A stretch of 64,000 nucleotides of DNA from an uncultured Gammaproteobacteria bacterium. Lineage in GTDB: Bacteria > Patescibacteriota > Microgenomatia > CAYSOG01. Below the pieces are notes generated by a model. That model was given only the letters and a program-made list of their open reading frames with translations. It was not told the origin of the DNA and searched no databases. Location of the stretch: contig CAYSOG010000006.1 of assembly GCA_964432675.1 (NCBI GenBank), positions 1,824-65,823 on the forward strand, given 5' to 3'. This document shows, piece after piece, positions 3,409 to 56,418 of the stretch; the stretch's first letter is position 1; each line of letters starts with the position of its first letter. The translations under genes and the position numbers were made by a program.

Positions 3409-4287
3409 CTATTTTATGAAATATTGATAAAAGGTATTTGACAGCTGGGCTTCAGTTTCTATACCGTCTTGCGGCGTCGACAAACCCTTGGCCATCAAAA
3501 CAATAACGTAGACTTGTTTGCCCGCGGTAACAATACCGATATCATGGCGGACATCATCTAAATCACCCGTCTTGTCAGCAACAGTTACACTGGCTGGTAA
3601 GTATTTTGCTATACGGTCGGCAATTTGCTGTTTGGCCATTAGTGTATAAATATTGTCACGAGCGGATTTTGACATACCTTGGCCATTGTAAATTTTTTCA
3701 AGCAGCACCATCATATCTTTTGGTGTGGTTGTAAAGTGATTATCAAAATAGGTGTTTTGCATGCCTAAACTATTTGTGAATTGTTGGATTTTCGGCCAGC
3801 CTAAAATGGCGGCTAAATTTTCGGCTAAATCTTCCTCGCTTCTTGTAATAATCGGTTCCCTACCGGTTGCGACCGTAAATCCAGCGCCTAAATCTGCATT
3901 AGGATCAAGGTTGCCCTTTTCCTCCTCAACATACGATGTCAAAACCAGCGGCACTTTGTATGTTGACGCCATTAAAAACGGTTCGTTTTCATTTTGGAAA
4001 AAAGTTTCGCCAGTGGTTAAATTTTTGACAGCAATGCCAAATGTCCCAGGTGTCGTGCTTTCCAGCGTTGTAACTTTCTCTTTCAGTGGTAAATCAGCCG
4101 GAAGTGCAATCGGCGTACCCGGTGGCCGACTAGTAGCCGAATCTTGGGCCTGGACATTACCTGTATCTGGCCGGTGTTGTGGTAGTTGCTTTGTGTCATT
4201 CTTAAACCAAACGAAGCCTGCTATGACAGAACTAAGTAATATACACAAAATGAATAACCGGTAGTAGGCGTTATTTTTTCGACGCAT
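3409..4287 (-). CDS. Class A beta-lactamase-like serine hydrolase, membrane-anchored
   Basis: N-terminal TM helix, 'STYK' (SxxK) motif and C-terminal 'KTGD' motif, as in class A beta-lactamases and penicillin-binding serine hydrolases. Confidence 0.65.
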   Translation of the reverse strand: MRRKNNAYYRLFILCILLSSVIAGFVWFKNDTKQLPQHRPDTGNVQAQDSATSRPPGTPIALPADLPLKEKVTTLESTTPGTFGIAVKNLTTGETFFQNENEPFLMASTYKVPLVLTSYVEEEKGNLDPNADLGAGFTVATGREPIITRSEEDLAENLAAILGWPKIQQFTNSLGMQNTYFDNHFTTTPKDMMVLLEKIYNGQGMSKSARDNIYTLMAKQQIADRIAKYLPASVTVADKTGDLDDVRHDIGIVTAGKQVYVIVLMAKGLSTPQDGIETEAQLSNTFYQYFIK

Positions 4288-6794: not shown

Positions 6795-6923
6795 AACATA
6801 AACGGTTGGAGTGTAAAAAGTAGATAACTATTGCCAATACAGAGATTTTTCGCTATAATCCCCGTAAGAAGTATAATTTACTCGCTCTTTCAGAAATTGA
6901 TCTTTCAGATACCGAAGATGAAC

Positions 6924-6976
6924 CTGGCCACCAAAGCTTTGGCTAATATAGAGCGGTCACCGCCTTTGGTGGCCAG
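6924..6976 (+). terminator. Strong hairpin (13-bp perfect stem CTGGCCACCAAAG/CTTTGGTGGCCAG, 27-nt loop) downstream of the cupin gene; possible terminator or insulator
   Basis: Perfect inverted repeat read directly from the sequence. The loop contains a 12-bp palindrome, CCAAAGCTTTGG. A T-rich stretch follows. Confidence 0.45.
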
Positions 6977-7138
6977 AAAATCTCTGGTATCTTTTATTTT
7001 ACCAAAATTCCCCCAATTTCATAAGTCTTATACGTCTGATATGTCCAATAGGACTTAATGCCCCTTGCATTTCTGCTTGACCACCTTAGAAGTAATAAGC
7101 TTTAAAGCCACTTCCCTAACTGAACTTTTAAACAGGTC

Positions 7139-7167
7139 TTGACACGTTTAGAACAAACAAATACAAT
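7139..7167 (+). promoter_or_regulatory. Sigma70-like promoter TTGACA-17-TACAAT for the large secreted protein; near-leaderless
   Basis: TTGACA at 7139-7144, 17-nt spacer, TACAAT at 7162-7167. The ATG is at 7176. Confidence 0.5.
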
Positions 7168-7175
7168 CCATATCA

Positions 7176-10100
7176 ATGTTTTTTAGGCTTGGGTTACCTG
7201 CCGGCCTATTATTTTTTACCTTTTTTATCCTGCTCCCCCACCCCGTGTTCGCTGCGTCGTGGCAAAAAGTTAGCAATTTGCCAACCACAAATATTAGTAG
7301 TTTTGCTTCAATTGACGCTGGTATATTTGCAGCTGATAATCAGACGACTTTTTCAAGACAATCTGAAAACGGTATTTACCAAATTTTAGTGGACGGATCA
7401 GCTGCGACAAAGACTTTCTCTAATTCACAGTTTTGGGTTAATAGTTTAATTTCGGTTGGTAATACCATGTATGCCACAACTTTTCAGGACACTACTTTCG
7501 GCCAAGGCGGCGTTTATAAATCTGTTGATAATGGCGCATCGTGGCAATTAACTAGTCTAACCCCAACGCATACAAAGTATTTAGCTGGAAATTCAGCCGT
7601 ACTTTTGGCCGCAAGTAATACAACAATGTGGCGTTCGGCTGATAGCGGTGCTACTTGGACACCAGTTATGCAGTTTGGTTCATTCGAACAGTTTTTAGCA
7701 ATTTCCATTGCTGGCAACACTGCTTTCGCATCCAGTACAAATGCTTTATATCGTTCGACAGATGGTGGCACAAACTGGCAAGCTATCACTATTCCTCAAC
7801 TGACCAAACAGTTCTTAGGCCAAAACGGTAATCTTGTATTAGCTGGCGGAAATGCCCAAGGCTTAATGCGGTCAACTGACAGTGGCAATTCATGGCAAAT
7901 TATTAATGATGCTTCGTATGGCGGTGAACAACCAGTTGGACCATTTACTTTTGCACCAAATGGAAATATTTATGCCGGTGGCTATACCATGTCATCTGGC
8001 GGCTACAATACCGGAACGATGTTTTCTTCTTCAGACAATGGCGCAACATGGACAAAAATTGATGCCGGTATTACCCATAGTCTTTCAAGCACACAAGCTG
8101 TCCAGGCAGTTTTAGCAACTTCTAACAAAGTATTCATATCACTTTTGCAAGGTGACGTATTTGTTTTGGACACAACGCCGCCACTTGCTCCAGCTAAAAC
8201 ACCACTCATTTTAATTCCGGGCATTGGTGGCAGCGAATTTACCGCTTCTTCTGCCATTACTCATGCTGCAACCGATGGCCATGGTGGCACTTTTTCACAC
8301 AACTATGATGCTGGAGAATTACTGTGGGTTAATATCGCGCAAGCCTTACTACCTGGTACCGATGATTACTTTGATGTTTTACGCATGAATACAGATGGTA
8401 CTACACCCTTACACAATGAAGTTACTTTAGATGGCAGTGTTGTACCACAGGCATATGGCAATTTTGTGAAGTTCTTTACGGATAATGGTTATGTGTTGAA
8501 CAAGGATTTGTTCCTTTATCCATATGATTGGCGTAAAGATGTTACAATATCAGCTTTTTTACTGGATGGTCGCGTTAACCAAGTATTACAACAAACTGGT
8601 ACCACAAAGGTCGATATTGTCGCCCACAGTTTAGGTGGTCTTATTGCAAGAAAGTATACTGCCGATGCCAGTAATGCTACAAAGGTCCGAAAGCAAATAA
8701 CACTCGGTGCACCATTTTTAGGATCTGTTAACTCTCTTAAAGCTCTACGTTATGGAACCTGTGTTGATTACATACTCTTAAATAATTGCATGGGTATTAA
8801 TAAGGAAGAAATTAAGGATGTTGTCCAAAACATGACGAGCAACTTTGAACTTTTACCAGACCAAAATTACTATACTATTTACGATAATTCAGACAGGAAT
8901 CACCCCTATCCATTCCGTGATGATCGAGATATTGATAATAATGGCGTAACCGGTGCTTTAAATTATGATCAAACGAAAACCCTATTAACTAATCTGCAGC
9001 ATAATACTTCGTTATTTAATCCATCGGAGCAATTTCACACAGTCGACAATACCCTAGCCCAAACAAATGGCGTCGAAATATATACTATCGCTGGCTCTGG
9101 TAAATGTACTCTTGGCAATGTTAGAGAGTTTTCGAAAATAAACTTCTTAGGGCAAGCAGTAAATAAAACCGAAGAAAGTACTATTAATGGCGACGGGACG
9201 GTGCCACTTTTTAGTGCCTCGTTAACTGATACCACAAAAAACTTTAACCTTGCAGGTCAAACTAAGGTCTATTATACGAATCAAGAACACAGCGCGTTAA
9301 CAAGCAATGGCTCTGCCCTGCAACTTGCGAAAGCGATCCTAAATGGTGACTCTACCCTACCAACTGGAGTTAGTAGTAGTGCTTACAAAGCAAGCTGCAA
9401 GCAAATTAGCGTCTTAAGCCCGGTGACTGTCGATGTTTATGACACAAATGGCAATCATACTGGTCCTACAGCTAATGGTGGTTTTGAAACGAATATTCCA
9501 GGCAGCAGTTATGATGAAATTAACGAAGGCAAAACGGTAGTTTTACCAGAAGATGGCCAGTACACAATAAAGTTAAAGGCTACTGATAACGGCTCGTTCG
9601 ACCTGAAAGTGAAAGATATTACCAATGATGCACCCACGCAAGAATTAGTTTACTCAGATGTACCAATAACATTAAGTTCTGCGGCAACACTTGTTGTTGA
9701 CCAATCCCAGCCGTCTCCACAATTACAACTTGATAGTAATGGTGATGGCACAACTGATCAAAACATATCCCCCACTACCTTAGCCGGTAATACGGCAAAT
9801 GACACGGCTGCTCCAAAAACGTCTATAAATGTATCAGGTACACAAGGATATGGGAATTGGTATAAAAGCAGTGTTACAGTGACATTACAAGCGAATGATG
9901 AAATAGGCGGATCTAGTGTTGCCAAAACAGAATATTCACTTGATGGCGGTAAAACTGTTCAATTATATAACCAGCCATTTGTTATATCTGCGGAAGGGAC
10001 GACAAATCTAAAAGTTCGTTCAATGGATAATGCCGGTAATCAAGAAGTGTTCGTAACGAAAGATATATTAATAGATAAAACGCCACCTGAAGCTATAATC

Positions 10101-10544
10101 AGTTATAACCCTGCGACACAGAACATTGAAGTAACAGCAAGCGATAATCAACCGTACCAACCCTCTTTGAATGACGCTGGCAGTACAATTACTATTCAAG
10201 ATGCAGCCGGTAATACTACAGTGTTACAAGTTTCACGCCAAAATACCCAAAAAGGGTTAAAACTTGTCGTTTCGTCAATTCAATATAACTCACTTTCGCC
10301 GACTATTCTACCTGGAGACTTTCTGACAGTAACAGGGCAAAGTAGCATACAAAGGAATACAAAATTAGGTCAATCTGCTAATTTATATAACGAGGAGAAA
10401 GTCAGTGCGCAATATGATCCGACTACGAACACGACATCGATAATAAATAAACTGGTGAATGCAAAACGTCAAACCGAAACACGACAGGGACTTGTATTAA
10501 TAAAAATGGCAACTGCAAACGGTAGCTTAAGTATTATTTATTAG
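7176..10544 (+). CDS. Secreted multidomain protein: N-terminal BNR/Asp-box repeat domain fused to an alpha/beta-hydrolase lipase (LCAT/PGAP1-like), plus C-terminal beta-sandwich domains
   Basis: Signal peptide. Five or more S-x-D-x-G-x-T-W Asp-box motifs (SVDNGASWQ, SADSGATWT, STDGGTNWQ, STDSGNSWQ, SSDNGATWT). Lipase nucleophile elbow 'AHSLGGL'. Long Thr/Ser-rich C-terminal region. Confidence 0.75.
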   Translation: MFFRLGLPAGLLFFTFFILLPHPVFAASWQKVSNLPTTNISSFASIDAGIFAADNQTTFSRQSENGIYQILVDGSAATKTFSNSQFWVNSLISVGNTMYATTFQDTTFGQGGVYKSVDNGASWQLTSLTPTHTKYLAGNSAVLLAASNTTMWRSADSGATWTPVMQFGSFEQFLAISIAGNTAFASSTNALYRSTDGGTNWQAITIPQLTKQFLGQNGNLVLAGGNAQGLMRSTDSGNSWQIINDASYGGEQPVGPFTFAPNGNIYAGGYTMSSGGYNTGTMFSSSDNGATWTKIDAGITHSLSSTQAVQAVLATSNKVFISLLQGDVFVLDTTPPLAPAKTPLILIPGIGGSEFTASSAITHAATDGHGGTFSHNYDAGELLWVNIAQALLPGTDDYFDVLRMNTDGTTPLHNEVTLDGSVVPQAYGNFVKFFTDNGYVLNKDLFLYPYDWRKDVTISAFLLDGRVNQVLQQTGTTKVDIVAHSLGGLIARKYTADASNATKVRKQITLGAPFLGSVNSLKALRYGTCVDYILLNNCMGINKEEIKDVVQNMTSNFELLPDQNYYTIYDNSDRNHPYPFRDDRDIDNNGVTGALNYDQTKTLLTNLQHNTSLFNPSEQFHTVDNTLAQTNGVEIYTIAGSGKCTLGNVREFSKINFLGQAVNKTEESTINGDGTVPLFSASLTDTTKNFNLAGQTKVYYTNQEHSALTSNGSALQLAKAILNGDSTLPTGVSSSAYKASCKQISVLSPVTVDVYDTNGNHTGPTANGGFETNIPGSSYDEINEGKTVVLPEDGQYTIKLKATDNGSFDLKVKDITNDAPTQELVYSDVPITLSSAATLVVDQSQPSPQLQLDSNGDGTTDQNISPTTLAGNTANDTAAPKTSINVSGTQGYGNWYKSSVTVTLQANDEIGGSSVAKTEYSLDGGKTVQLYNQPFVISAEGTTNLKVRSMDNAGNQEVFVTKDILIDKTPPEAIISYNPATQNIEVTASDNQPYQPSLNDAGSTITIQDAAGNTTVLQVSRQNTQKGLKLVVSSIQYNSLSPTILPGDFLTVTGQSSIQRNTKLGQSANLYNEEKVSAQYDPTTNTTSIINKLVNAKRQTETRQGLVLIKMATANGSLSIIY

Positions 10545-10797
10545 TACTTCTATGTTTAAGTATCTTAAGGAAATAGACCACCATAACCCAAAATAATATA
10601 TTCAAAGCATAATAACTAAAGGCAGAATTATAAGGATTTATGCATTTGCTAATAGGATATCCAGTAGGTTGACAAGAGCTAAATCCGGAAGGTGTGTTTG
10701 TTAAATATCCAATTATCATCTGTAGAAGCAAGCTCACAAGCCATAAAGCGATCCCGAGTATTATAAGAATAGCCAGTTTCTTCCAATTTAATTTCAT
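10534..10797 (-). CDS. Small integral membrane protein, hypothetical
   Basis: Two predicted TM helices. Sits in an operon position upstream of trpS. Confidence 0.4.
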   Translation of the reverse strand: MKLNWKKLAILIILGIALWLVSLLLQMIIGYLTNTPSGFSSCQPTGYPISKCINPYNSAFSYYALNILFWVMVVYFLKILKHRSTNK

Positions 10798-10800
10798 ATA

Positions 10801-11796
10801 TTAATACAACTTCATGGCTTCGCGGACGCGGGACATGGTTTTTTGGGCTTCGGTGAGGGCCTTTTGGTTACCGGCGTTTAGTACTTCATCGACGATACCC
10901 GATTTACCTTCAAATTCTTTACGGCGTTGGCGAATGGGGTCCAGAAAAGCGTTTATGGCTTCAACTAACTTTTGTTTTACTTCGGTATCCCCCACTTTGC
11001 CTTCGGTGTATCGCTTTTTTAAGTCTGCAACTTCTTCCTTGTTACTATTAAAGACATCGTGATATAGAAATACGGGGTTGCCTTCGACATGGCCAGGGTC
11101 GGTTGGGTGAATTCGGGTGGGATCAGTGTACATTGATTTTACTTTTTGCTCAACTTCTTCTTTGCTATCGGCTAAATAAATGGCATTATTGAGTGACTTG
11201 CTCATTTTGGCATTGCCGTCGGTACCAACTAATGAAGGGACATCCCCTACCATTGCTTCGGGGCGAACTAATGTGTCGCCGTAAATGCTATTAAATTTGT
11301 CGACAATTTCTTGGGTTTGTTCGATCATCGGCAGCTGGTCTTTCCCGACCGGCACCAAATTTGCACCGACAAAGGTAATGTCAGCGGCCTGGCTTACGGG
11401 GTACATGAAGAAACCTAACGGCACATTTTCTTCCATGCCTTTTTGTTTCATCTCGGTCTTGACTGTGGGGTTGCGGCCAAGTCTTGCTAAGGTAACTAAA
11501 TTAGCATAATAAACGGTCAGCTCAGCAATTTGGGGAATGCATGATTGTACAAAAATAGTTGCAATAGAAGGATCGATACCAACCGACAGATAATCGAGTA
11601 CAACTTCGCGAATATTATCGCGCACTTTTTCCGGGTGGTCGTAATTGTCAGTAAGTGCCTGGACATCAGCCAGCATAATATACGTTTCATATTCATGCTG
11701 CAGCTTTACCCGGTTCTGTAACGAGCCAACAAAATGTCCCAAATGAAGCCGGCCTGTTGGCCTATCACCAGTTAAAATTCTTTTTTTATCAGCCAT
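10801..11796 (-). CDS. trpS: Tryptophanyl-tRNA synthetase
   Basis: HIGH-type motif 'GRLHLGHF' and 'KMSKS' motif. Confidence 0.9.
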   Translation of the reverse strand: MADKKRILTGDRPTGRLHLGHFVGSLQNRVKLQHEYETYIMLADVQALTDNYDHPEKVRDNIREVVLDYLSVGIDPSIATIFVQSCIPQIAELTVYYANLVTLARLGRNPTVKTEMKQKGMEENVPLGFFMYPVSQAADITFVGANLVPVGKDQLPMIEQTQEIVDKFNSIYGDTLVRPEAMVGDVPSLVGTDGNAKMSKSLNNAIYLADSKEEVEQKVKSMYTDPTRIHPTDPGHVEGNPVFLYHDVFNSNKEEVADLKKRYTEGKVGDTEVKQKLVEAINAFLDPIRQRRKEFEGKSGIVDEVLNAGNQKALTEAQKTMSRVREAMKLY

Positions 11797-11812
11797 ATGT
11801 CATTTCCTTCTG

Positions 11813-12301
11813 TCATTCCGGCTTGGCCGGAACCCTTACTTTTTGTAAGGGTTGATCCTGGGTTGGCTTTGGTGCCAGGATGACGAAAAGTAAGGTACCA
11901 ACTACACCAATACTAATACAAGCATCGGCGACATTAAACGCGGGCCAGAATGGCACCTGAATAAAGTCTATCACATATCCTAAGCGCAATCGATCGATGA
12001 TATTGCTGATACCACCGCCTAAAATTAGCGCTAATAAAATACGGGATGCTACAGACGCTCTGCCCTGTTTTAATACAAACCAAATAACGCCACAAATAAT
12101 GAGCAGAGAGATAAAGGCAAATAATGAGTTATTATTGCCCAAAATACCAAACGTGCCACCGGAATTTTGGATAACCGGTAAGCTACTTGTTACAACAAAA
12201 TGTTTGGACAGTTGATCGAGGATAACCACCGTACTTGCAAAGGCAGCGAGAAAAATTGGTAGTGGCAAAATATTAACGTTTACCGTCTTTTTTAGTTTCA
12301 C
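11813..12301 (-). CDS. lspA: Lipoprotein signal peptidase II
   Basis: 'NSGGTFG' and 'FNVADACI' signature regions and four TM segments. The start may be a downstream Met, since the ORF overlaps the upstream gene by 29 nt. Confidence 0.85.
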   Translation of the reverse strand: MKLKKTVNVNILPLPIFLAAFASTVVILDQLSKHFVVTSSLPVIQNSGGTFGILGNNNSLFAFISLLIICGVIWFVLKQGRASVASRILLALILGGGISNIIDRLRLGYVIDFIQVPFWPAFNVADACISIGVVGTLLFVILAPKPTQDQPLQKVRVPAKPE

Positions 12302-12641
12302 AGCTTAAACAAAGGGTTGCCATTGGAAATACTTCGAGGCGCTTCGGGTCAATCGGCTTGCCACAATATTCACAAATACCATAGTTACCGATACCAAGTT
12401 TAGACATCGCCTTTTTTATTTGCGCCAGCAGCCGCTCTGACTCATTTATATTTGACTCAACCCGCCGGTGACCTTCTTCTTCCATTGATTCGGTGCCAGG
12501 TTCATCTAAAAAACTACGGTCATGATCAAGGAATGGGTCATCTTTTTTTAAGCGCGATAGTTGTTTTTCGATTAGGATTTTTTGCGATTCTAACGTTCTC
12601 TTTACTTTATCTAATGTTTCACTTGGCAAAGAAGTTTTCAT
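12273..12641 (-). CDS. DksA/TraR-family C4-type zinc-finger protein
   Basis: C-terminal 'CEYCGKPI...LCLSC' four-cysteine zinc finger with a coiled-coil N-terminus. Confidence 0.75.
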   Translation of the reverse strand: MKTSLPSETLDKVKRTLESQKILIEKQLSRLKKDDPFLDHDRSFLDEPGTESMEEEGHRRVESNINESERLLAQIKKAMSKLGIGNYGICEYCGKPIDPKRLEVFPMATLCLSCETKKDGKR

Positions 12642-12668
12642 AAGTAATATTCTCTCACTTTCTTATAT

Positions 12669-13454
12669 TCAGGATTGACGTATTTCAGTTGTGCTCATTG
12701 GCGGCGGCACAACAGCAAGTGTGGATCGTCTTGGCGTTTTGTACCAATATAATAAGCAAATACCAATTGCGATTATACTCAAAACCCACTGGCTTCGTAT
12801 CCCAGCCCAGTATACACTGTCACCCCGTAAAAATTCAATTAAAACTCGTGCCAGAGCATAGACAAAAATATACAGCAATGCAACATAGCCTTTTTTGTGT
12901 GAGCGATGGATAATTTGCAAACAAATTAGGAATAAGAGAAGTTCAATCAAGGCTTCAAATAGCTGGACTGGATGCCGTTTCCCTTCGAGACCCACAACCA
13001 TTGTACCCCAAACTAACGTGGTCTTAGCACCATAAGCTGAGCCCGCCAAAAAAGCACCAATTAGGCCAATGGCATGACTAATGGCCACGGTCACCGCTGC
13101 TCTATCTAATATATTACCTACCGCGATGTGCTGGGATCGGTAATACCACACGAGCCCTAGCGTACCACCGCCTAAGGCTCCCCACCAGATAAAACCCGGC
13201 CGAGTAAATATATCTATGACACTAAAAAGATGGGGCCAGAATAAATTAAGATGCAGTAGAACAAAAAGCAGCCGTGCGCCAATAAATCCGCTCATCACAC
13301 TAACTAAAAGGCCATCAAATACCTGTTCGATTGAAATGGATTGCTTTCTTACTAGTTCCCAAAACGTAAAGGTACCAGTAACAAAACTGACCGCTGCAAA
13401 AAGGCCAAAACTATAAAGCGTTAGGGGGCCTAAACGGAAAAGTATCGGCAACAT
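12669..13454 (-). CDS. lgt: Prolipoprotein diacylglyceryl transferase
   Basis: Polytopic membrane protein with the Lgt signature region 'GFIGARL'. Confidence 0.85.
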   Translation of the reverse strand: MLPILFRLGPLTLYSFGLFAAVSFVTGTFTFWELVRKQSISIEQVFDGLLVSVMSGFIGARLLFVLLHLNLFWPHLFSVIDIFTRPGFIWWGALGGGTLGLVWYYRSQHIAVGNILDRAAVTVAISHAIGLIGAFLAGSAYGAKTTLVWGTMVVGLEGKRHPVQLFEALIELLLFLICLQIIHRSHKKGYVALLYIFVYALARVLIEFLRGDSVYWAGIRSQWVLSIIAIGICLLYWYKTPRRSTLAVVPPPMSTTEIRQS

Positions 13455-47661: not shown

Positions 47662-48249
47662 CTAGATCCAGCCCTTTTTGTAGAAATAAAGCCTTGCTAA
47701 AATTTCATATACAATATTCCGCCAGTGGCCTCGAGTTTGCCAGTGCAGTGAGTTGGGATCGTATGGCACGCCAAAAGTATTGGCAGCGAATACTTCGCTA
47801 AATCCAAGCTTTTTCGTGGTCCAGACTGCCCGAACCATTTGGTCTGGATGCGCAACAATCAAGGCAGTATTCCACCCTCGGTAGCGACAAAGGCTTAATG
47901 CACGCTCTCCTATTTCATGGGTATTCGGTTCTTTGCGGGCAAACATCGATCTTCGTACATTTAACGAGACCTGCCGACGCAAGCCATATGGCAGACAATC
48001 AACAAGTTGCTCTTGCAAGATAAAAGGGATATTGTAGCCTTGGTGTAGCTCAACGGCAATTGCGGCCAACCGCTCGTTTGCTGGGCTTGAACCGTCTTTC
48101 CTTAAACCGCTCGCAAAGCCAATGATAACCTTTGCCCCAGCCTGCGTTGCTGTAAGGCTGGGCTTCATATGCCAGGTAAAAATACAGCGCCAGATCTTAA
48201 TTAGGTCCAAACCGGCACCCCTTTGTTGAGGATTTTGTAAACGTGCCAA
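47662..48249 (-). CDS. Hypothetical protein (195 aa; possibly DUF218/YdcF-like)
   Basis: ORF with globular composition. The family assignment is a guess. Confidence 0.4.
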   Translation of the reverse strand: MARLQNPQQRGAGLDLIKIWRCIFTWHMKPSLTATQAGAKVIIGFASGLRKDGSSPANERLAAIAVELHQGYNIPFILQEQLVDCLPYGLRRQVSLNVRRSMFARKEPNTHEIGERALSLCRYRGWNTALIVAHPDQMVRAVWTTKKLGFSEVFAANTFGVPYDPNSLHWQTRGHWRNIVYEILARLYFYKKGWI

Positions 48250-48310
48250 GATACTTGGAAATTGCTTTTCCTTTCAATACCCAAATATCTTTTGGATGGT
48301 GAAAGGAAAA

Positions 48311-48336
48311 GCGGAGGGCCAATTTAGGCCCTCCGC
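48311..48336 (-). terminator. Perfect 10-bp hairpin GCGGAGGGCC/GGCCCTCCGC at the left edge of the high-GC segment
   Basis: Followed on the minus strand by TTTTCCTTTC. Confidence 0.5.
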
Positions 48337-48528
48337 GATTAGATACTACAGATGCAGCGTTGCGGCAACACGGCCGGCAAAAAAACCGCAATGGTAGCCG
48401 ATTGAATAACCAAAGGCATGTGCCCGCTGATGGACGCGCAACCGAAAGGTTGGGTCGATAAGCTTTGCGGCAAAGTGCCTTACGATAGAGCTTCTCATTG
48501 GCGTTTCTCCTTTACGCTTTTGCGAAAC

Positions 48529-48987
48529 TTATTCGGTAAGAGCAACCGCGGCGGCCGCAGGGCCACTACTCGGCCGATGCGGCACAGGCGAACCAAAAGG
48601 ACCGTCGCCACCATCATCGAGTCGAGTTGGCCCGCTTTCCCCCGGCGAATTTGGCGGAGCAGGAATTTGGTCGAACGCAATCTTCAATGCTACGGATATG
48701 CTAAACTCTTGCTCACACGCTTCACAGGTTGCCAGATGGGCATAAAAAGCCTGATAGTCATGTTCCCTACGATGGCTTCGACCGTCGGCAAAGATTTCTG
48801 TCATGGCTTCCATGAGCCAACGCGCCTGTTGGTGTGTTGCCGGCTGCCAATTAAATAGTTGGGCCTGCAATATTCGCCAGCGCCGAATACAAATGGGACA
48901 CTTTACAATATGGTCGTCGAGAAGTTCGATATTGTACCTTATGTGAAATTCCTGCTGAGGGCAAAAATCGAAACCTTGTCTTGCCAT
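48529..48987 (-). CDS. Zinc-finger protein with zf-HC2-like motif (anti-sigma-factor-like) and Pro/Gly-rich tail
   Basis: 'CPICIRRW' plus 'HLATCEAC' (H-x3-C-x2-C). Confidence 0.45.
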   Translation of the reverse strand: MARQGFDFCPQQEFHIRYNIELLDDHIVKCPICIRRWRILQAQLFNWQPATHQQARWLMEAMTEIFADGRSHRREHDYQAFYAHLATCEACEQEFSISVALKIAFDQIPAPPNSPGESGPTRLDDGGDGPFGSPVPHRPSSGPAAAAVALTE

Positions 48988-49188
48988 GGGCTTGTCTTCT
49001 CCCTGCTACTTGTCGCTGCTGTAGAAATTAAAGTGCTTATAGTACTAGCTCAACCTTTATTCGTAGGGTTAAACTATGGACATTATAACAGAGAGACACT
49101 CTTGGGTCAATAACTATAGGATGTAAAATCTTGCAATGCAACAGTTGTAGCCTGAAACATTGTAAAAGATAGATGGTAATTTTCCATA

Positions 49189-49223
49189 GAAAAAGGGCGG
49201 TTGTCTTGTAAGACAACCGCCCT
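49189..49223 (-). terminator. Rho-independent terminator (GGGCGGTTGTCTT-gta-AGACAACCGCCC) for the high-GC gene
   Basis: Perfect 12-13-bp stem with a T5 run on the minus strand. Confidence 0.65.
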
Positions 49224-49273
49224 GGGTTGGTGTCCGCCATGGTGGCGAACGGGTTTCGTTGAACGGGCCGAGG

Positions 49274-50050
49274 CTATCCGCGACCGCCGCGCTGGCGGTT
49301 TCTGTACTCGGCGTCGCGAGCCGATCTCTCGGCTTGCTGCTGGCGCCGCTCCGGTGGCGCACCCCGGTGGTTGCGCGGGTCTGTGGCCCGGCAGTCTCGG
49401 AGATGCGTGGCCAGTAGCGGGAGCAGCCGGCGAATCTCGGCCTGCTTGGGCCTGCTCTTGGTGGCGCCGTCGATTTCCTCCTGGCTAAGCCAGGGAAACT
49501 CCGACTGCTCGATCTTCTCGACATTTCTGAGAAGGGCGAGCGCGCCAATCAGAAGCAGCTGCTGCGGCTTTCGCATGAGCCCCGCCTCCTCGGCGAGGTT
49601 CTCGAAATGCGGGAGATACGTATCCCGCTGGGCCGACATGCAGGCCAAGAAGAGCTGCCAAGCGGCCTCGCGCGCCGCGGCGTAATCCGGTTCGAGGTCG
49701 TCCAGGATCATATCCCGGATCCGCTCCAGTTCCGCCTTGAGTTCGACCCGGCGTGGCTCGGCGATCCCATCCCAGCCGGTAGCAAATTGCGCGGTCTGGA
49801 ACTGCCGCCGGGCGGCCTCGTCGATCGGGATCCGCGGCTGATGCTGCTGGTCGGTGCCGGACTGCTCGTCGGTAGCGCAACCGAGAGACTTGCTGGCCTC
49901 GCGGATGACCCGGTCGATGGTCCCCTCCACGGGGGTCTCGGTGACGGTCTGGTCGGCGGTCTCGACGACGGTCTGGTCGGCGGTCTCGACGACGGGCTTC
50001 TGGTCGGCGGTGGCTTCGGTGCTATCAACGGTCTTGGCGGTCTTGGTCAT
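49274..50050 (-). CDS. High-GC hypothetical protein with tandem 8-aa repeats (start at 'MTKTAK')
   Basis: Protein-like frame among several GC-driven overlapping ORFs. N-terminal VETADQTV repeats and a helical C-terminal domain. Own terminator. Confidence 0.5.
   Translation of the reverse strand: MTKTAKTVDSTEATADQKPVVETADQTVVETADQTVTETPVEGTIDRVIREASKSLGCATDEQSGTDQQHQPRIPIDEAARRQFQTAQFATGWDGIAEPRRVELKAELERIRDMILDDLEPDYAAAREAAWQLFLACMSAQRDTYLPHFENLAEEAGLMRKPQQLLLIGALALLRNVEKIEQSEFPWLSQEEIDGATKSRPKQAEIRRLLPLLATHLRDCRATDPRNHRGAPPERRQQQAERSARDAEYRNRQRGGRG
49946..50014. repeat. Tandem direct repeat, 24-nt unit GGTCTGGTCGGCGGTCTCGACGAC x2 plus a partial third copy
   Basis: Read directly from the sequence. 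Encodes the VETADQTV repeats of the 49274 gene. Confidence 0.8.
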
Positions 50051-50197
50051 CTGGCCTTCTCCTGTACAATGAACCTGGCAACACGTGCTAAACGGTAGCA
50101 CACCGCGCCCAAAATGGGCGAAAGACTCTTGCCACAGTTTCATCCGGAGGCCCACGGGCCCGCCGAAAAAAACTAACAAGCCGATGACTGGGCGCCG

Positions 50198-50425
50198 TCA
50201 AAACGACGGCGCCTCCGACATGAACTCAAGGAACTTGCGGTCCGCTTCGGTAAGGACTGGGTCGACAAAAAGCCGACCATTGTCCTTTCCACAGCGGGGC
50301 AATGTCCCTCGGGTCGCCGGCGCCTCGGCCGCAGAAAGCCCACCTTCGTGGACCTTACCGCAGCTCAGGCAGGTTACGTCGAATTCCGTTGTGTTCGGAA
50401 TCACCGGTCTTGCCGCAACTACCAT
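50198..50425 (-). CDS. Small Cys-containing protein (75 aa), high GC
   Basis: 'CLSCGKVHEGG...PRCGKDNG' putative zinc-ribbon. Confidence 0.4.
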   Translation of the reverse strand: MVVAARPVIPNTTEFDVTCLSCGKVHEGGLSAAEAPATRGTLPRCGKDNGRLFVDPVLTEADRKFLEFMSEAPSF

Positions 50426-50894
50426 GTATTCCTCCTAAAAACTAGCCTCTCCGCTGAGGCTTCCATTACAAGGACTTACCATTCGTAAATCCCGATAATA
50501 GAAACCTCACCGTTTTAGCGTTGCTTAAAGGAAGTATTGTTCAACGATAATAATAGTAATGTGCAAATGCTTTTGGGTTTTTACGCCCTCAAGCGTTTGT
50601 TTGCAATTTGCGGCAAAAATAATTCGCAAATCCAAACAATTGTTGTGAAGTATATCACACTACAGGCCTTTTGTCAAGTATCTATAGGTCATACTATATA
50701 AATGTATAACCCTGCATAGATGCTATACACGCCATGTGTACCAGGATCAATAAAAGACATATGCCCTACTTCGCCGGACTACTTATACCATATGTATATA
50801 TAACTATAAGTTATGTATAGGCATTGCCTAGACACAGATTTCTGCATATTGTCATCCTGGCTTAATTGCATTATTTATGTTAGATAAAGCCAAT

Positions 50895-50931
50895 AAAAAA
50901 GGGCCGCGGTATTCATACCGCGGCCCAAAAA
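50895..50931. terminator. Bidirectional terminator GGGCCGCGGTA-ttca-TACCGCGGCCC flanked by A/T runs, downstream of the helicase
   Basis: Perfect 11-bp stem. A6 upstream and A5 downstream on the plus strand. Confidence 0.7.
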
Positions 50932-50972
50932 CCCTTGCAGTTTATATTGGTACTGCAAAAACGACAAATAGC

Positions 50973-53939
50973 CTACTTAGCGGAAGGCTGTACCGCTTTT
51001 TGGTACACTTCCCGCAACAGGCCAATCTTCTTTACTTTGTGGCCGCTTTTAAGGCCCTCTTGGTTAACAAATCCCCAATACGTCTTCCCCCTTTCAGGCG
51101 TTGCCACTTCCGAAGCGGTGGCATCGAATTCGAAAAGCATGCCGTATGAAATTTCATCAATCGGCACAACCTTGTCGCCTTCGAACTGGTACTGCCCCGC
51201 TCCCGGCCAATGTTCGGCGTGGAACTGCGCAAGCCATGCGTCGTATTCGGCCTGCTTTTCCGCTTCCTCTTGGGCCAAGAGCTCAGCAAATTCGCGATCG
51301 AACTGCTCCTGTTTCCGTTGCAACAGCGCTTGCTCCAACCGAACCTGTTCGGCTTCGGCAGCAGCTTGCCGCCTTCGCGATAGCTCTTGCGCTTCAGCCT
51401 GCATCCGAGCCAGTTGAGCTTCTCGCTGCGCTTGCAGCGCCACTTCGCGGTTTGCTTCATAGGTTGGCCGGTTAGTGTCGATGAACTCGCTGGCAGCCGA
51501 AAGTCGCATCTCAGCGTCGGCCGGCCACTGCTCATCGAGCACCTTCAGTCGAAGGGCTTCAAGATCTTGGTAAAACGTGTAAGCCCTTTGGTCATCTTCA
51601 GCAAGTCCCCACATCGCCAAATCATTGCGAATTAACCACAGCACACCAGTAATACTATCAATCAAAGCCAGCTGGCTTCGCTGCGCTTCGGTTTGGTAAC
51701 GCCAGCGTTCCGATTCCGGAACTTCATCGCGCGTACACAAAACTTCCTCATATGCCACTTCTTGGCCAAGCACTGTAGTCGTGCGAGATTTGGTCCATTC
51801 TACCCGCATAAAACCGGGGGGTTTTGGATTGCCCTCGCGAACACTGACCATATGCGGGGCAACTTCAAGCAGCCACTCGACCTCGACTTTTTGGCAGCCA
51901 CGGGCAAAATTGCGTTTGCCTTTTGGCGTTGTGACACCTTGAATACCAGCACAGACAATAATCTGCGGTGGCGTATGAAACAACACGCTATCACGCGAAA
52001 TATACAACGCGGTGTCTTCCTCACGCGACAATGACCAAATGCTACGCGGCTTGGCGCCGGCCCAGGTGTAGCTGAACCTGCCATTTGAAACGGCCAAGTT
52101 CTGCATTAAACCAGCTGCCACTGCCTTGCCGATCACCGCAACTTGGCTCTTTTCGGTGTCAGTTAGTTCCCAACGGTCGACTGCCTTTTGGTAGCCTACC
52201 GATGTGACCTCGATCCCCATCAGCATAATAATATCCATAAGTTGCCGACGGATTTTGAGGATTTCATCAAGGCTTCGATGGTTCAAAAAGTGGTCACGTG
52301 CCCAATCATGGTCATAACCCGCGTCTGCGTATTCGTTCATGACGTTTAATACGGTTAGGAAATCGCTGTCATGAACAGACAAGCGTTGCCGCCACATGTC
52401 TGCATCAGCTTCATGGTCACGCGGCCTGGTAAAAAGCCGGTTGACCGAAAGGCTTGCGGCAATGGTGCAGATTTCTGCAATACAGCCATGCTTTTCGGCT
52501 TCCAAGATCATACGGCCGATGGTTGGTTCAACTGGTAGTTTTGCCAATTGCTGGCCGACATCGGTCAACGTATTATCAGCGTCAACCGCCCCAAGTGCCC
52601 GAAGTGTTTCAAGTGCGTTATGGAGCGCTTGCTTTGGCGGCGAGTCGATGAACTCGAACTCCTCGACATCAGTAATGCCAAGGCTCAGCATCTTCAACAC
52701 CACACTCGACAGTTCGCTGCGCACAATCTCGGGTACGGTAAACTCATCTGCATGGTCATACTCGGCCTCTGTAATAAGCCGGTAACAGTTGCCTTCATCG
52801 GTCCGCCCTGCCCGGCCGGCACGTTGGCCCATACCAGACTTCGAATGCAATATGGTCTGCAAGCTGCTAATGCCGCTGTGCGGATCAAACTGCATTTGGC
52901 GGATAAGGCATGAGTCGACCACATCAACCGCAGTTTGCGGTGTGATAGATGTTTCAAGCACGTTGGTGCCGATAATCACCCGACGGCGGTTTGAAGGAAT
53001 AAAGACGCGCTGCTGTTCGTCCGGGCTCATGTCGCCATGAACTGGAATAAGCTCGGCGTCGATATTAAGCCGTTCGAGAAATTCAATTGTCTTATTAATC
53101 CAGGCAAGGCCCGGCATAAAGACCATGATATCCCGTTTGGCTCTTTGGCTGGCAATAATTTGACTTACTTTGTATGCCGCCAGTGCTTCAACCGGAACCG
53201 GTTTGTCCGGATCGATTAGCCCCAGGAACTGGTCTCGAGCCTTATGATGTTCGCCCGGCTGAAGGTAATGGACCGTGACGGGAAACTGTTTCCCAACAAC
53301 CTGGATGATTGGCGCATTGTCGAAAAACGCCGAGAACTTTTCGGCATTAATGGTGGCCGACATGATAATAAGTTTCAAGTCAGGCCGCAACCGTAATGCT
53401 CGCTTCGCCAGGCCAATGGCAAAATCAGTATCGACGTTGCGTTCGTGCGCTTCGTCGAACCCGATAATGCCGTATTGATAGAACCCTTGGTCATGAATGG
53501 CTTCCTGAAGCAGGATACCATCGGTCATAAACTTAATTTTCGTGCCAACGCTTGTTTCATCGTCGAAGCGAATTTGGTAGCCGACTTCGTTGCCAATCCT
53601 ACTACCTAGCTGCCTGGCGACAAATTGGGCAACGGTAATTGCCGCAATGCGCCTGGGCTGGGTGATGCCAATCCTGCCAGTTTGAAGCATGTCTGCGTTG
53701 TACAGGAATTGTGGAACCTGGGTTGTCTTACCGCTGCCAGTTTCGGCAACCAAGATGGTTACCTGGTTCTGCCGAATGGCCTCGACAATTTCGTCTTTGT
53801 GCTGGCCAACGGGCAATTGAAGGTTCACGTTTTCGTTCCTCACGAGCAGGGGCCCTGGCGTTGCCAGGAATTGCCCACCCTGCTCCGACCACTTTTTCAG
53901 GTCTTGTCCGAAGTCTTTCCGTAAAGGGCAACGGACCAT
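50973..53939 (-). CDS. DEAH-box ATP-dependent helicase, HrpA/HrpB-like, with C-terminal OB/coiled-coil extension
   Basis: 'VAETGSGKTTQVPQF' (motif I), 'GFDEAHER' (DEAH) and helicase-associated HA2/OB-like region. Long Gln/Ala/Glu-rich coiled coil near the C-terminus. Confidence 0.85.
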   Translation of the reverse strand: MVRCPLRKDFGQDLKKWSEQGGQFLATPGPLLVRNENVNLQLPVGQHKDEIVEAIRQNQVTILVAETGSGKTTQVPQFLYNADMLQTGRIGITQPRRIAAITVAQFVARQLGSRIGNEVGYQIRFDDETSVGTKIKFMTDGILLQEAIHDQGFYQYGIIGFDEAHERNVDTDFAIGLAKRALRLRPDLKLIIMSATINAEKFSAFFDNAPIIQVVGKQFPVTVHYLQPGEHHKARDQFLGLIDPDKPVPVEALAAYKVSQIIASQRAKRDIMVFMPGLAWINKTIEFLERLNIDAELIPVHGDMSPDEQQRVFIPSNRRRVIIGTNVLETSITPQTAVDVVDSCLIRQMQFDPHSGISSLQTILHSKSGMGQRAGRAGRTDEGNCYRLITEAEYDHADEFTVPEIVRSELSSVVLKMLSLGITDVEEFEFIDSPPKQALHNALETLRALGAVDADNTLTDVGQQLAKLPVEPTIGRMILEAEKHGCIAEICTIAASLSVNRLFTRPRDHEADADMWRQRLSVHDSDFLTVLNVMNEYADAGYDHDWARDHFLNHRSLDEILKIRRQLMDIIMLMGIEVTSVGYQKAVDRWELTDTEKSQVAVIGKAVAAGLMQNLAVSNGRFSYTWAGAKPRSIWSLSREEDTALYISRDSVLFHTPPQIIVCAGIQGVTTPKGKRNFARGCQKVEVEWLLEVAPHMVSVREGNPKPPGFMRVEWTKSRTTTVLGQEVAYEEVLCTRDEVPESERWRYQTEAQRSQLALIDSITGVLWLIRNDLAMWGLAEDDQRAYTFYQDLEALRLKVLDEQWPADAEMRLSAASEFIDTNRPTYEANREVALQAQREAQLARMQAEAQELSRRRQAAAEAEQVRLEQALLQRKQEQFDREFAELLAQEEAEKQAEYDAWLAQFHAEHWPGAGQYQFEGDKVVPIDEISYGMLFEFDATASEVATPERGKTYWGFVNQEGLKSGHKVKKIGLLREVYQKAVQPSAK

Positions 53940-54106
53940 TTGGTTGAGCAGGGCTGCTCGATTACAGAACCGATCGGGCGCTAATTTTTAATAGCCCATC
54001 AGCTTTTTTCCTTTCTTTTTATTTTCATTGCTTGTTAAGGTACATTTGGAAGCTAAACTTCCCTAAAACTCACTTTCGCCTTTATATAGAGCGACAATGA
54101 GCTTGA

Positions 54107-54138
54107 GGAAAGCCACGTCTGTGTAAACCAGACGTGGC
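54107..54138 (-). terminator. Hairpin GCCACGTCTG-tgtaaac-CAGACGTGGC downstream of the 54152 gene
   Basis: Perfect 10-bp stem. Separates the helicase from the ORFan array. Confidence 0.5.
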
Positions 54139-54151
54139 GAAAAATGTCTAT

Positions 54152-54751
54152 CTACTGATTGATGTTAACACCCAGTTGGGCTTCTGCTGGCACGCCTTGT
54201 GCCAAGAGCGCCTGAAGGTATTCCGAACTCGGCAGTTTGTTGATATATTCGGCGAACTTAGCCGGGTACTCCCGACGCGCCCGTTCATACAGGATTTCAA
54301 TGACCCGAGAATCGACAAGCCCATTAAGGTAGTTCCGGCCTGGAGTAAATGGTGCCTGCCGATGGTTTCGCTTGACGAGCTGTCGAGCACCCTGGTCAAA
54401 GTGCTTCACAACATACGCCCGCATGATAGCAACGTATTGGCCGCCTTCCATGTTTGGCAACGGAACCAAAAGGTACCGGTCTGCAATGCGGAGTGCATGG
54501 GCATAGTCCGCATCAAGTCGCAACCTATTGATTAGCTGCTTGCGTTCAACCAACGACTCAGCGAACGGTCGCCGTAAAGCTATGACTGGACCATAGTTCA
54601 GCCGCCTGTTCAGCCACAATAGCTGCCGCCCGAACCAGCGATTTACCCATCGAAACTTCCACCGAAGGGCGAATGAGGCAATGATAAGGAAAAAGGCGAA
54701 AACCGCCATTACGGTCAACACCTGCCCAAAGACTGTTACTACTTCTTCCAT
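54152..54751 (-). CDS. Hypothetical membrane-anchored protein (199 aa)
   Basis: N-terminal TM helix. Arg-rich. Confidence 0.45.
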   Translation of the reverse strand: MEEVVTVFGQVLTVMAVFAFFLIIASFALRWKFRWVNRWFGRQLLWLNRRLNYGPVIALRRPFAESLVERKQLINRLRLDADYAHALRIADRYLLVPLPNMEGGQYVAIMRAYVVKHFDQGARQLVKRNHRQAPFTPGRNYLNGLVDSRVIEILYERARREYPAKFAEYINKLPSSEYLQALLAQGVPAEAQLGVNINQ

Positions 54752-54781
54752 CTGCTCTCCCCTTTCTCTTGCTTGGTAAGG

Positions 54782-55561
54782 TTACGCCGGCACCGGGTCT
54801 GCGAGCCGAACAAGGCGAAAATTAAACCCTTTGCCGTAGGGCGTCGCATGCAAAACTATTCGGGAACGAGCTGGTATGGAACTATGCGGGTCGATCGACA
54901 CCCAAAATGCGGCGGTAAACAATCTAGAATGTTCCTTGAAATAGAGTAGTCGATTATGAATGTAAGACGCTACCTCCGGATCACCTTCGATATTATCTCT
55001 CTCAATAACAACAAAGGCTTGGCCGTTACCACCTGGATAGTAGTAATAGTTATTATCAACAGAAACTGTCACTTCACGAACGCACTTGCGTTCGATCAAT
55101 TCCACCGCCCGACCGTGCCCGATGGACATATATTGCAGTTCACCGTGTAGCATTACCGGTTCTATAAAGTCTTCAGGGCACCTGCCCTCACTAACGCGCA
55201 TAATGCATCCACTTTCCACAATGAAGTCGCAGTATTGCGCGATATAGGAAATCGGGAGATGGTCGTTTGCTATTTGGCATGTTAGGCCCATTTTCCTTGC
55301 TCGAACCTCACCTACTAATTCCATGCAGCCTGAATTTTCAGAGAGGACGACAAAGAGCTCATCGTCATAAAGCTCATGGGATATGTACTGAAGCTGCTCT
55401 CCGGATAAATCACCAGCTCCGAGAAATTCACCCTTCTCATTGAACCATCGTCCCCGCGAAATCCAGGGGTCAGAGCGTTCAACTTGTCCGCCTCGTAAGC
55501 CGAACAAGCCTGCTGCTCCTATATTCAGACCGCTATACATACCTTTGACAAGACGGGACAT
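54782..55561 (-). CDS. Hypothetical protein (about 260 aa from 'MSRLVKG'; ORF extends to 55720)
   Basis: AGGAGG RBS 6 nt upstream of the ATG at 55559-55561. Contains 'NYYYYPGGNG'. Confidence 0.45.
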   Translation of the reverse strand: MSRLVKGMYSGLNIGAAGLFGLRGGQVERSDPWISRGRWFNEKGEFLGAGDLSGEQLQYISHELYDDELFVVLSENSGCMELVGEVRARKMGLTCQIANDHLPISYIAQYCDFIVESGCIMRVSEGRCPEDFIEPVMLHGELQYMSIGHGRAVELIERKCVREVTVSVDNNYYYYPGGNGQAFVVIERDNIEGDPEVASYIHNRLLYFKEHSRLFTAAFWVSIDPHSSIPARSRIVLHATPYGKGFNFRLVRLADPVPA

Positions 55562-55756
55562 GATCTGCCTCCTCTTTTCGCTTTGCTGCTTTCCATCAAT
55601 TTTGTAGATTTTTAATGTACCATTTGGACACGCTTCGTGCCCAAACTGAAGGCTATTCCCTTCCGCAAACGTTTTTATACGCTTAAGGCATAAAAATGCT
55701 TGAGGAAAGGCCCCGTCCATCAGCCAGTTGGTGAATGAACGGGGATGAAAATTACT

Positions 55757-56274: not shown

Positions 56275-56418
56275 TTTTCCTCCTTTTTGTTCCGCTTCGT
56301 TTTTCTGTAGGTATTTGAATGTGCAATTTGAAGCATACCGCTTCCTGAAACCCTCTAGGCTGCTGGCCTAAAAAGTTTGAGGAATGGGCGGGACGGCTTT
56401 TTAAGCCGTCCCGCAAAT

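Follow-up and report, generated by a model that had tools for sequence, protein, structure and literature searches.

The window analyzed here, a 64,000-nt stretch of contig CAYSOG010000006.1 (assembly GCA_964432675.1), carries a plus-strand gene (7176..10544) whose 1122-residue product is, on balance, probably a modular lipid hydrolase of the serine type, exported by Sec, with the LCAT/LPLA2 fold, made by a Microgenomates bacterium and serving lipid supply or host-membrane damage. The hydrolase domain is a true member of the LCAT family (PF02450), from an uncharacterized bacterial branch. Together with the β-sandwich that follows it (aa ~341-850) it is, judged from the alignments, the constant core of a large uncharacterized family centered on Microgenomates, and its gene is convergent with a small gene for a protein with two predicted transmembrane helices. 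The LCAT/PF02450 fold family was already known; new here are the fusion of a BNR propeller to the hydrolase, the swapping of N-terminal modules and the conserved convergent miniprotein gene.

The coding sequence begins with an ATG at 7176, the earliest start codon 3' of the upstream in-frame stop, and ends with the stop codon at 10542-10544. A database entry identical to its product is referred to as P0001. The product is laid out as follows.

7176..7253, plus strand: Sec-type signal peptide, aa 1-26, cleaved after VFA (sequence reading)
7254..8180, plus strand: seven-bladed BNR/Asp-box β-propeller, aa 27-335 (AlphaFold2 model, Foldseek, sequence matches)
7521-7544, 7635-7658, 7755-7778, 7872-7895 and 8028-8051, plus strand: Asp-boxes (motif reading)
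8196..9365, plus strand: LCAT/LPLA2-like α/β-hydrolase with inserted subdomains, aa 341-730 (Pfam, AlphaFold2, Foldseek)
8628-8630, 9192-9194 and 9288-9290, plus strand: catalytic triad Ser485, Asp673 and His705 (invariant in the alignment)
8760-8762 and 8787-8789, plus strand: Cys529/Cys538 pair (kept in 98 of 118 sequences)
9375..9710, plus strand: family-conserved β-sandwich directly 3' of the hydrolase, aa 734-845 (model and conservation)
9816..10073, plus strand: OmpL47-type/CHB_HEX_C-like β-sandwich, aa 881-966 (NCBIfam NF047446 match at aa 896-961)
10092..10541, plus strand: two more C-terminal β-sandwich modules, aa 973-1122 (model secondary structure, Foldseek)

The signal peptide, read from the sequence as MFFRLGLPAGLLFFTFFILLPHPVFA followed by AS, opens with MFFR and its one basic residue, continues with a 16-residue hydrophobic core and closes with the V-F-A cleavage motif. 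In an AlphaFold2 (AF2) model of aa 335-1122 the C-terminal third is all β-strand and is arranged in four β-sandwich-like modules. One of these passes the domain cut-off of the OmpL47-type model NF047446 (69.4 bits against 40, aa 896-961), whereas the window protein fails the cut-off of the full-length OmpL47 equivalog (38 bits against 250). Pfam adds a weak match to PF03174 (CHB_HEX_C-like) in the C-terminal region, and the last two modules have Foldseek matches to SiiE BIg and MG-type domains. Near-invariant columns of a 118-sequence alignment extend to aa 853, and distant family members align over the hydrolase and the first β-sandwich jointly. An earlier reading of this DNA, made without database searches (the sequence-only reading), had described the 1122-residue open reading frame (ORF) with its signal peptide, Asp-boxes, AHSLGG nucleophile elbow and long C-terminal β-sandwich region, and each of these is present where it had been placed. 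The same reading called the C-terminal region Thr/Ser-rich, but this does not set it apart: Ser and Thr together make up 21-24% of that region and 23.8% of the propeller.

The assignment of the hydrolase draws on its Pfam match, its active-site residues and its predicted fold. Residues 426-644 match the LCAT model (PF02450) with 65.5 bits (cut-off 21, E=6.9e-18) over profile positions 68-311 of 392, with weaker matches to Lipase_2, PGAP1 and DUF676 overlapping the same region, in agreement with the LCAT/PGAP1-like fusion that had been proposed. The serine of the AHSLGG elbow is Ser485. S485, D673 and H705 are invariant in the 118-sequence alignment, whose members are 34-49% identical to the query, and a PGxGGS loop, a DDYFD motif and YDWRxD are likewise invariant, while the largely retained Cys529/Cys538 pair fits an extracytoplasmic protein. 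In the AF2 model, built with 117 homologues (mean predicted local distance difference test score, pLDDT, 93.2; predicted template-modeling score 0.85), S485 is flanked by a strand and a helix and D673 and H705 each follow a strand, which is the canonical α/β-hydrolase placement. The Ser-Asp-His triad, named beforehand as the feature on which the lipase assignment should be checked, is accordingly in place. The Asp-to-His spacing of 32 residues equals that of LPLA2 (S165/D327/H359; PMC6027918) and of LCAT (S181/D345/H377; PMC5880497), and from sequence and model the enzyme looks catalytically competent.

Comparison of the model with the PDB by Foldseek places LPLA2 or LCAT in all of the top eleven positions (E 1.8e-15 to 2.2e-10), the best match being LPLA2. 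The TM-scores of these matches, normalized on targets of ~377 residues, are 0.65-0.74 (0.72-0.74 for LPLA2) over ~420 aligned columns. They are followed by the antibacterial phospholipase Tle4 (E=1.3e-7), the Bacillus lipase BlEst2 and then family I lipases and the polyhydroxybutyrate (PHB) depolymerase PhaZ7; a profile search also matches Tle4 (E=3.9e-9). At the positions of the membrane-binding and cap domains of LPLA2 and LCAT the model predicts two insertions, one of ~95 aa at 355-449 and one of ~125 aa at 516-640. PDB sequence searches with short fragments, taken from around PGIGGSE/YDWR and from around the Asp and His, yielded chance matches only.

The family to which this hydrolase belongs includes 292 proteins at E<=0.001, with Levybacteria, Daviesbacteria and further Patescibacteria accounting for nearly all of the best 120, and among representatives of 50%-identity clusters there are 747 matches at E<=1e-30 and 3158 at E<=1e-10. 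In GTDB species genomes nearly all informatively named matches are from Microgenomates (Daviesbacteria, Levybacteria, Roizmanbacteria), with a few in metagenome-assembled genomes (MAGs) of Doudnabacteria, Dojkabacteria, Anaerolineales and Ignavibacteria. Several genomes of ~1 Mb carry two or three paralogues. The tryptophanyl-tRNA synthetase (TrpRS) encoded next to the lipase locus shares 68-75% identity with its best matches, the named ones mostly from Daviesbacteria and Woesebacteria, and because of these matches and of the hydrolase homologues we place the window in Microgenomates. The bacterium, earlier taken to have a reduced genome and probably to depend on a host, belongs to the Patescibacteria, an ultrasmall group, with homologues of the hydrolase in Daviesbacteria and Levybacteria. 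About half of the family MAG records are titled 'uncultured Gammaproteobacteria bacterium' (TPA_asm, binchicken/SRP co-assemblies; L004, L005, L012, L014-L018, L020 and others), a label that looks like a placeholder or an error, the gene content of the records so labeled matching Patescibacteria. Full-text literature searches for LCAT-like enzymes in Patescibacteria turned up no paper, which does not prove that there is none.

Around the constant core both ends of the protein vary. A signal-peptide-like N-terminus is found in 69 of 73 relatives, with 2 more running off their locus, and the N-terminal module ranges in length from 17 to about 540 residues. Among the best 120 of the 292 proteins, Pfam identifies this module as PQQ-like in 8, RCC1-like in 5 and DUF1080 (lectin-like, ConA-like) in 11, and the BNR module occurs in the query, P0002 (49% identity) and P0003 (40%) only; a metagenome scan with the propeller returned distant BNR proteins (22-43% identity over parts), none fused to a hydrolase. 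As far as domain matches can tell, the N-terminal module is swapped among members, being BNR in the window protein and PQQ-like, RCC1-like or DUF1080 elsewhere, and the BNR propeller is a rare one among the targeting modules exchanged on this conserved enzyme. Precomputed Pfam matches also show CHB_HEX_C modules in some other family members. At the C-terminal end, 20 of 70 family hydrolases (L021, L026, L031, L041, L042, L045-L050, L052, L053, L057, L058, L060, L062, L065, L075, L081) end in a transmembrane helix and basic tail with the consensus ...GGLLxxSGGIxTLASxGLxATFxKPxPK, by which these members are predicted to be anchored in the membrane of the producer.

The propeller carries exactly five S/T-x-D-x-G-x-x-W Asp-boxes (aa 116, 154, 194, 233 and 285), spaced 38-52 aa apart, a pattern that is not plausibly a product of chance. 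The model of aa 27-345 (pLDDT 91.7) contains 27 strands, equivalent to about seven four-stranded blades, so that motif and model both bear out the β-propeller proposed earlier. Its best PDB matches in Foldseek comprise individual domains of GH74 xyloglucanases, Ycf48, the sensor domain of BT4673 and the protease-binding protein DAIP, with a TM-score against Ycf48 (8am5_S, 5ojr) of 0.72 on the target and 0.69 on the query, and PDB sequence matches are to DAIP, GH74 and Ycf48. The nearest sequences are 'PSII stability/assembly factor-like' and Sortilin-Vps10-type BNR proteins (23-39% identity), many with type IX secretion system sorting tails. No Pfam propeller model reaches its cut-off (Pfam BNR 18.9 against 27), and sequence-level membership of the Ycf48 equivalog in NCBIfam fails (16.7 against 326); the likeness of the modeled fold to Ycf48 is therefore a resemblance of fold class, not orthology.

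Two more specific identities for the propeller were rejected. A sialidase (GH33) has six blades in place of the approximately seven modeled here, no sialidase is among the top 50 PDB matches, and aa 1-345 contain no [FYW]R[IVL]P (FRIP) motif. Membership of the GH74 xyloglucanases fails on the single propeller (aa 27-335), where two in tandem are needed, and on the F510_1955 glycosylhydrolase model (53 bits against 175). The comparison with sialidases and glycan-binding proteins made in the sequence-only reading has therefore to be given up in its first part, and the glycan-binding label is unsupported as well, since the ligands of propellers of the Ycf48/GH74/DAIP class include peptides or proteins besides glycans.

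The 3' end of the hydrolase gene meets a small gene on the opposite strand, which has counterparts in the orthologous loci of BNR type.

10534..10797, minus strand: partner gene, 87-residue protein with two predicted transmembrane helices, convergent to the hydrolase gene and overlapping its 3' end by 11 nt
L001 9518-9778 and L002 3668-3973, minus strand: partner homologues in the BNR-type orthologous loci (profile search)

In both of these loci the small minus-strand gene has the same 11-nt overlap. An iterative profile search of all ORFs of <=160 aa in 82 loci and the window recovered 72 partner homologues, all on the strand opposite the hydrolase. The 3' end is complete for 70 hydrolase ORFs, and a convergent partner is present at 62 of these, the gap between the two genes being -54 to +7 nt in 61 of the 62 and +69 in one. 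The partner proteins are ~80 aa long and share a layout of an N-terminal MSKK, a first transmembrane helix, a 25-35-residue loop, a second helix and a basic tail; the loop contains an invariant Gly-x-Pro, as C..TGYPIA.C or AGLPFKF, and the second helix an invariant Trp. No match to the partner protein was found in Pfam, NCBIfam or PADLOC, and the hydrolase likewise has no meaningful match in PADLOC. In 50 of 67 partner genes a -10 box, often extended as TGTGATAnnT, lies 5-10 nt before the ATG, which makes the partner a separate and probably leaderless transcription unit in most loci; in the window it sits 3 nt after trpS instead.

Hydrolase and partner appear to have diverged together. Over 58 pairs their identities are correlated (Mantel r=0.70, with 0 of 2000 permutations as high), the partner diverging faster (median identity 27% against 46% for the hydrolase), and paralogues within one genome each retain their own partner. 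We considered the partner as a replacement for a missing membrane anchor and rejected this, as all 20 hydrolases with a transmembrane tail also have a partner. The partner may act as a tether, a restraint or an immunity factor.

The minus-strand run that ends 3 nt before the partner gene (10801-13454) consists of lgt (12669-13454), a dksA/traR-type zinc-finger gene (12273-12641), lspA (11813-12301) and trpS (10801-11796) and was not seen in two orthologous loci. The lipoprotein-maturation genes lgt and lspA thus adjoin the lipase locus.

A setting for such an enzyme is provided by the lipid economy of the group. Patescibacteria are described in a review as being without lipid synthesis and with no lipid uptake or breakdown mechanism identified, while lysolipids are enriched in them and field lipidomics points to uptake from neighboring bacteria (PMC11665869); an earlier proposal gives the same lipid-supply role to a secreted phospholipase of Vampirococcus (PMC8080830). 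Because of that review and that proposal, host-lipid harvesting and/or host-membrane damage is the most likely role of the enzyme. The exported protein would dock via its N-terminal module onto a ligand on another cell or polymer. Ser485 would then be acylated by the fatty acyl chain of a membrane glycerolipid with release of a lysolipid, as in LPLA2, LCAT or Tle4, and the acyl chain would be passed to water or to an acceptor. The lysolipids and fatty acids could supply an organism whose group lacks lipid synthesis, or the host membrane could be damaged, while the exposed loop of the small membrane protein would most likely keep the enzyme tethered or restrained on the membrane of the producer itself. 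The lipase or phospholipase activity and the harvesting of host lipids, both already suggested in the sequence-only reading, and with them the lipid nature of the substrate, are what we infer from the modeled fold. More tentatively, and with appreciably less confidence, we suggest that hydrolase and miniprotein might form an undescribed two-gene module of Microgenomates that duplicates and diverges as a unit and is their main tool for obtaining host acyl lipids, the N-terminal module picking the host surface, the LPLA2-like domain making lysolipids and the miniprotein holding or restraining the enzyme.

Several observations weigh against this picture of a tethered enzyme acting on host lipids. 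By sequence, a profile search puts the nucleophile-elbow region nearest to Bacillus LipA-type lipases, and the Foldseek list also contains triacylglycerol lipases, cholesterol esterase and PhaZ7, so that the fold does not fix the substrate. Loss of lipid synthesis is reported for the group, and a 64-kb window cannot show it for this genome. The C-terminus of the window protein has no transmembrane tail and no LPXTG/sortase motif and thus no recognizable cell anchor; of the surface location proposed earlier the export signal is supported and the attachment is not. Retention of the partner beside hydrolases with a transmembrane tail argues against a pure anchoring role, and the co-divergence of two adjacent genes would be expected from linkage alone.

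The spread of substrates among the structural matches gives some room, though not much, to a general extracellular esterase that scavenges environmental polymers, with possible substrates in acetylated or feruloylated plant glycans, cutin-like polyesters, PHB or triacylglycerol and with the propeller, lectin and CHB_HEX_C-like modules serving as carbohydrate- or polymer-binding modules. The best structural matches of the propeller (GH74 xyloglucanase domains), the DUF1080 (ConA-like) or CHB_HEX_C modules of other members, the CHB_HEX_C-like domain in the C-terminal region of the window protein, and the presence of PhaZ7 and triacylglycerol lipases among the structural and profile matches are all consistent with this. 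However membrane-active LPLA2/LCAT, followed by Tle4, are clearly best by E-value and TM-score, the Pfam LCAT match spans the cap region (profile positions 68-311), and with one propeller the protein is without the cleft that two of them form in GH74. The family is moreover concentrated in organisms thought to be host-attached, and its close association with a membrane-protein gene, like the transmembrane tails (20/70), fits action on membranes better than it fits a freely diffusing depolymerase.

The partner gene bears on two further readings. An antibacterial, membrane-lysing toxin of the Tle/Tli kind, delivered by Sec and killing or permeabilizing the host, with the two-helix protein as its immunity factor, would account for Tle4 being the best bacterial match in structure (E=1.3e-7) and profile (E=3.9e-9), for one partner per paralogue over the 58 measured pairs (Mantel r=0.70) and for the faster divergence of the partner (27% against 46%), which is typical of toxin/immunity pairs; the swapping of N-terminal targeting modules also recalls polymorphic toxins. 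We nevertheless regard it as unlikely, as the window holds no type VI secretion system (T6SS) or other contact-dependent delivery context, there is no match to PADLOC or a known immunity family, and the gene pair is convergent, not co-transcribed. Tli proteins, moreover, are periplasmic or lipoproteins and are not known to include miniproteins with two transmembrane helices, which we count against it too. The toxin reading also overlaps with that of a host-directed lipid hydrolase instead of excluding it. Very unlikely, in our view, is an LCAT-like acyltransferase working on the producer's own surface (lipids, lipoglycans or proteins) with the partner as a membrane-embedded cofactor. It would draw on the ability of LCAT and LPLA2 to transacylate as well as hydrolyze (PMC6027918; PMC5880497), on the 20 of 70 members anchored in the producer by a C-terminal transmembrane helix and on the adjoining lgt and lspA, but the latter lie on the opposite strand and were not seen in the two orthologous loci inspected, and variable outward-facing modules and several paralogues per genome fit diverse external targets better than a single housekeeping reaction. 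The reading we prefer is an exported LPLA2/LCAT-like enzyme that would hydrolyze or transacylate acyl lipids at a membrane surface, directed there by its swappable binding module.

Transcription of the hydrolase gene can be read from a promoter that abuts its start codon, and the region upstream contains two further elements.

7139-7144, plus strand: -35 box TTGACA (sequence)
7162-7167, plus strand: -10 box TACAAT, after a 17-nt spacer and 8 nt (ccatatca) before the ATG
6831-6859, plus strand: upstream promoter-like site TTGCCA-17-TATAAT, the one other good candidate, also matching 11/12 consensus positions
6907..7000, plus strand: terminator-like hairpin (6907-6992) with perfect 13-bp arms (6924-6936 and 6964-6976) and a U-tract (6993-7000) (RNA fold)

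The promoter next to the gene matches 11/12 consensus positions, and its predicted transcript start at ~7174-7176 would give a leader of 0-2 nt; no Shine-Dalgarno (SD)-like motif is present at -20..-4 of the ATG. A TANNNT ending 6-9 nt before the start is found in 16 of 43 genes (37%) within 1-47 kb of the window against 8% of control ATGs (p=1e-7), and the same geometry in 110 of 376 genes (29%) of the 82 related loci against 9.8% of control ATGs (p=4e-26), where an SD-like tetramer precedes only 9% of genes. The orthologue P0003 has TTGACA-18-TACAAT-7-ATG. From these sequence patterns the hydrolase mRNA is most likely leaderless, as is usual for the lineage. The promoter and the short distance to the ATG given in the sequence-only reading hold exactly, at 8 nt, and a leaderless geometry is credible; what falls away is its standing as something special to this gene, since it is credibly a trait of the lineage. 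On the other side stands the orthologue P0002 (L001), where TTGCAT-17-TATAAT lies 33 nt upstream of the likely start and would give a leader of ~26-33 nt, so that the leaderless state is not universal in the hydrolase family. The called start of P0002 (1175 aa) looks ~53 residues too early (L001 6001-6160), the likely true ATG lying near 6161 (MFRPIYRLLGTLVISS...).

Transcription might alternatively begin at the upstream site (6831-6859) and give a ~310-nt leader, the site next to the ATG being a chance match. Both sites score 11/12, and promoter-like sites are not enriched in the 8-kb stretch examined (24 against 22.0 +/- 5.3 in shuffled sequence). We hold this to be improbable, given the strong hairpin and U-tract (6907-7000, z=-4.9) between the upstream site and the gene, the lack of a Shine-Dalgarno sequence before the ATG, the enrichment of the -10 geometry over control ATGs in window genes and related loci, and the same TTGACA/TACAAT arrangement by the ATG of P0003. 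The RNA fold of 6866-7000 has a free energy of -45.2 kcal/mol (0 of 200 shuffles as stable), and a simple terminator scan also lists 6972-6988. The hairpin arms are unique within the window and not a repeated element, and a comparison of the hairpin with Rfam gave no family and a chance miRNA-like match only (E=0.34). Lying in a 381-nt intergenic region, the upstream site and hairpin (6831-7000) could define a ~130-nt transcript, which could be a small RNA or merely reflect the terminator of the upstream cupin-like gene.

Elsewhere in the window, a 292-residue protein of the class-A-type β-lactamase family (PF13354, E=1e-34) is encoded at 3409-4287 on the minus strand, near tgt and a pseudouridine synthase gene. 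Positions 48000-64000 stand apart, with a G+C content of 0.45-0.55 against ~0.41-0.47 elsewhere, clear AGGAGG Shine-Dalgarno motifs of which the first 47 kb has few, ten ORFs without a Pfam or PHROG match, and a 988-residue DEAH/HrpA-like helicase (50973-53939, minus strand); possible explanations are a foreign island, a mobile element and a chimeric join in the assembly.

If hydrolase and miniprotein do act as a two-gene module, it would fill the lipid-acquisition gap noted for Patescibacteria. A large, lineage-restricted exported family, present in several copies in genomes of ~1 Mb and fitted with swappable targeting modules, is a concrete candidate for lipid acquisition, and the conserved convergent partner suggests a component of control or self-protection that has so far been overlooked. 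Lineage-wide leaderless and SD-poor starts would also affect gene calling and start-codon assignment, of which the start of P0002 is an example.

Each part of the system has relatives among known ones. The predicted start geometry resembles the leaderless mRNAs of Actinobacteria and Deinococcus-Thermus (Mycobacterium tuberculosis) in having a -10 box ~6-9 nt before the start, no SD and a high frequency genome-wide, and differs in belonging to Microgenomates and in being predicted from sequence; full-text literature searches found no paper on leaderless mRNAs in Patescibacteria or the candidate phyla radiation, which does not prove that there is none. The propeller shares with Ycf48/HCF136, GH74, DAIP and BT4673 its seven blades and the position of the Asp-boxes between the first two strands of blades. 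Unlike these, with which it has an identity of 12-18% only, it is joined to a lipase, a combination that the searches turned up in P0001-P0003 and nowhere else, and it is single where GH74 needs two.

Among bacterial hydrolases, BlEst2 of Bacillus licheniformis (PDB 6wpx) and Thermoanaerobacter EstA3 likewise consist of an α/β-hydrolase followed by a β-sandwich packed against it. Deletion of the C-terminal β-sandwich of EstA3 abolishes activity on C10-and-longer substrates, and the title of the BlEst2 deposit describes the C-terminal domains as inhibitory (PMC10816834). The overall TM-score to BlEst2 is low, however (0.24 on the query, 0.39 on the target), and the sandwich has no sequence-level match. 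Tle4 of Pseudomonas aeruginosa (PA1510/TplE; with Tli4, PDB 4r1d) has in common with the window protein an α/β-hydrolase with a cap and a small cognate gene adjoining, whereas the window protein is Sec-exported with no T6SS genes in the window, and its partner is a miniprotein with two predicted transmembrane helices, unrelated to families in the searched libraries and convergent, not operonic. Membership of the T6SS Tle4-type effectors fails on the Sec signal peptide and on the neighboring genes (tgt, the cupin-like gene, trpS, lspA, the dksA-like gene and lgt).

The closest comparison is with lysosomal phospholipase A2 (LPLA2/PLA2G15) and lecithin:cholesterol acyltransferase (LCAT). The window protein departs from them in being bacterial (Patescibacteria), with 16-19% identity in the structural alignment, in a Ser-to-Asp spacing of 188 residues against 162-164, in its own conserved Cys529-Cys538 pair and in the fusion of the hydrolase to an N-terminal propeller and four C-terminal β-sandwiches. 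It agrees with them in passing the PF02450 cut-off, in having them as its best structural matches, and in the (A/G)HS(M/L)G elbow, the Ser-Asp-His triad and the YDWR motif before the nucleophile strand, and like them it would be an extracytoplasmic enzyme, with large insertions predicted at the sites of their membrane-binding and cap domains.

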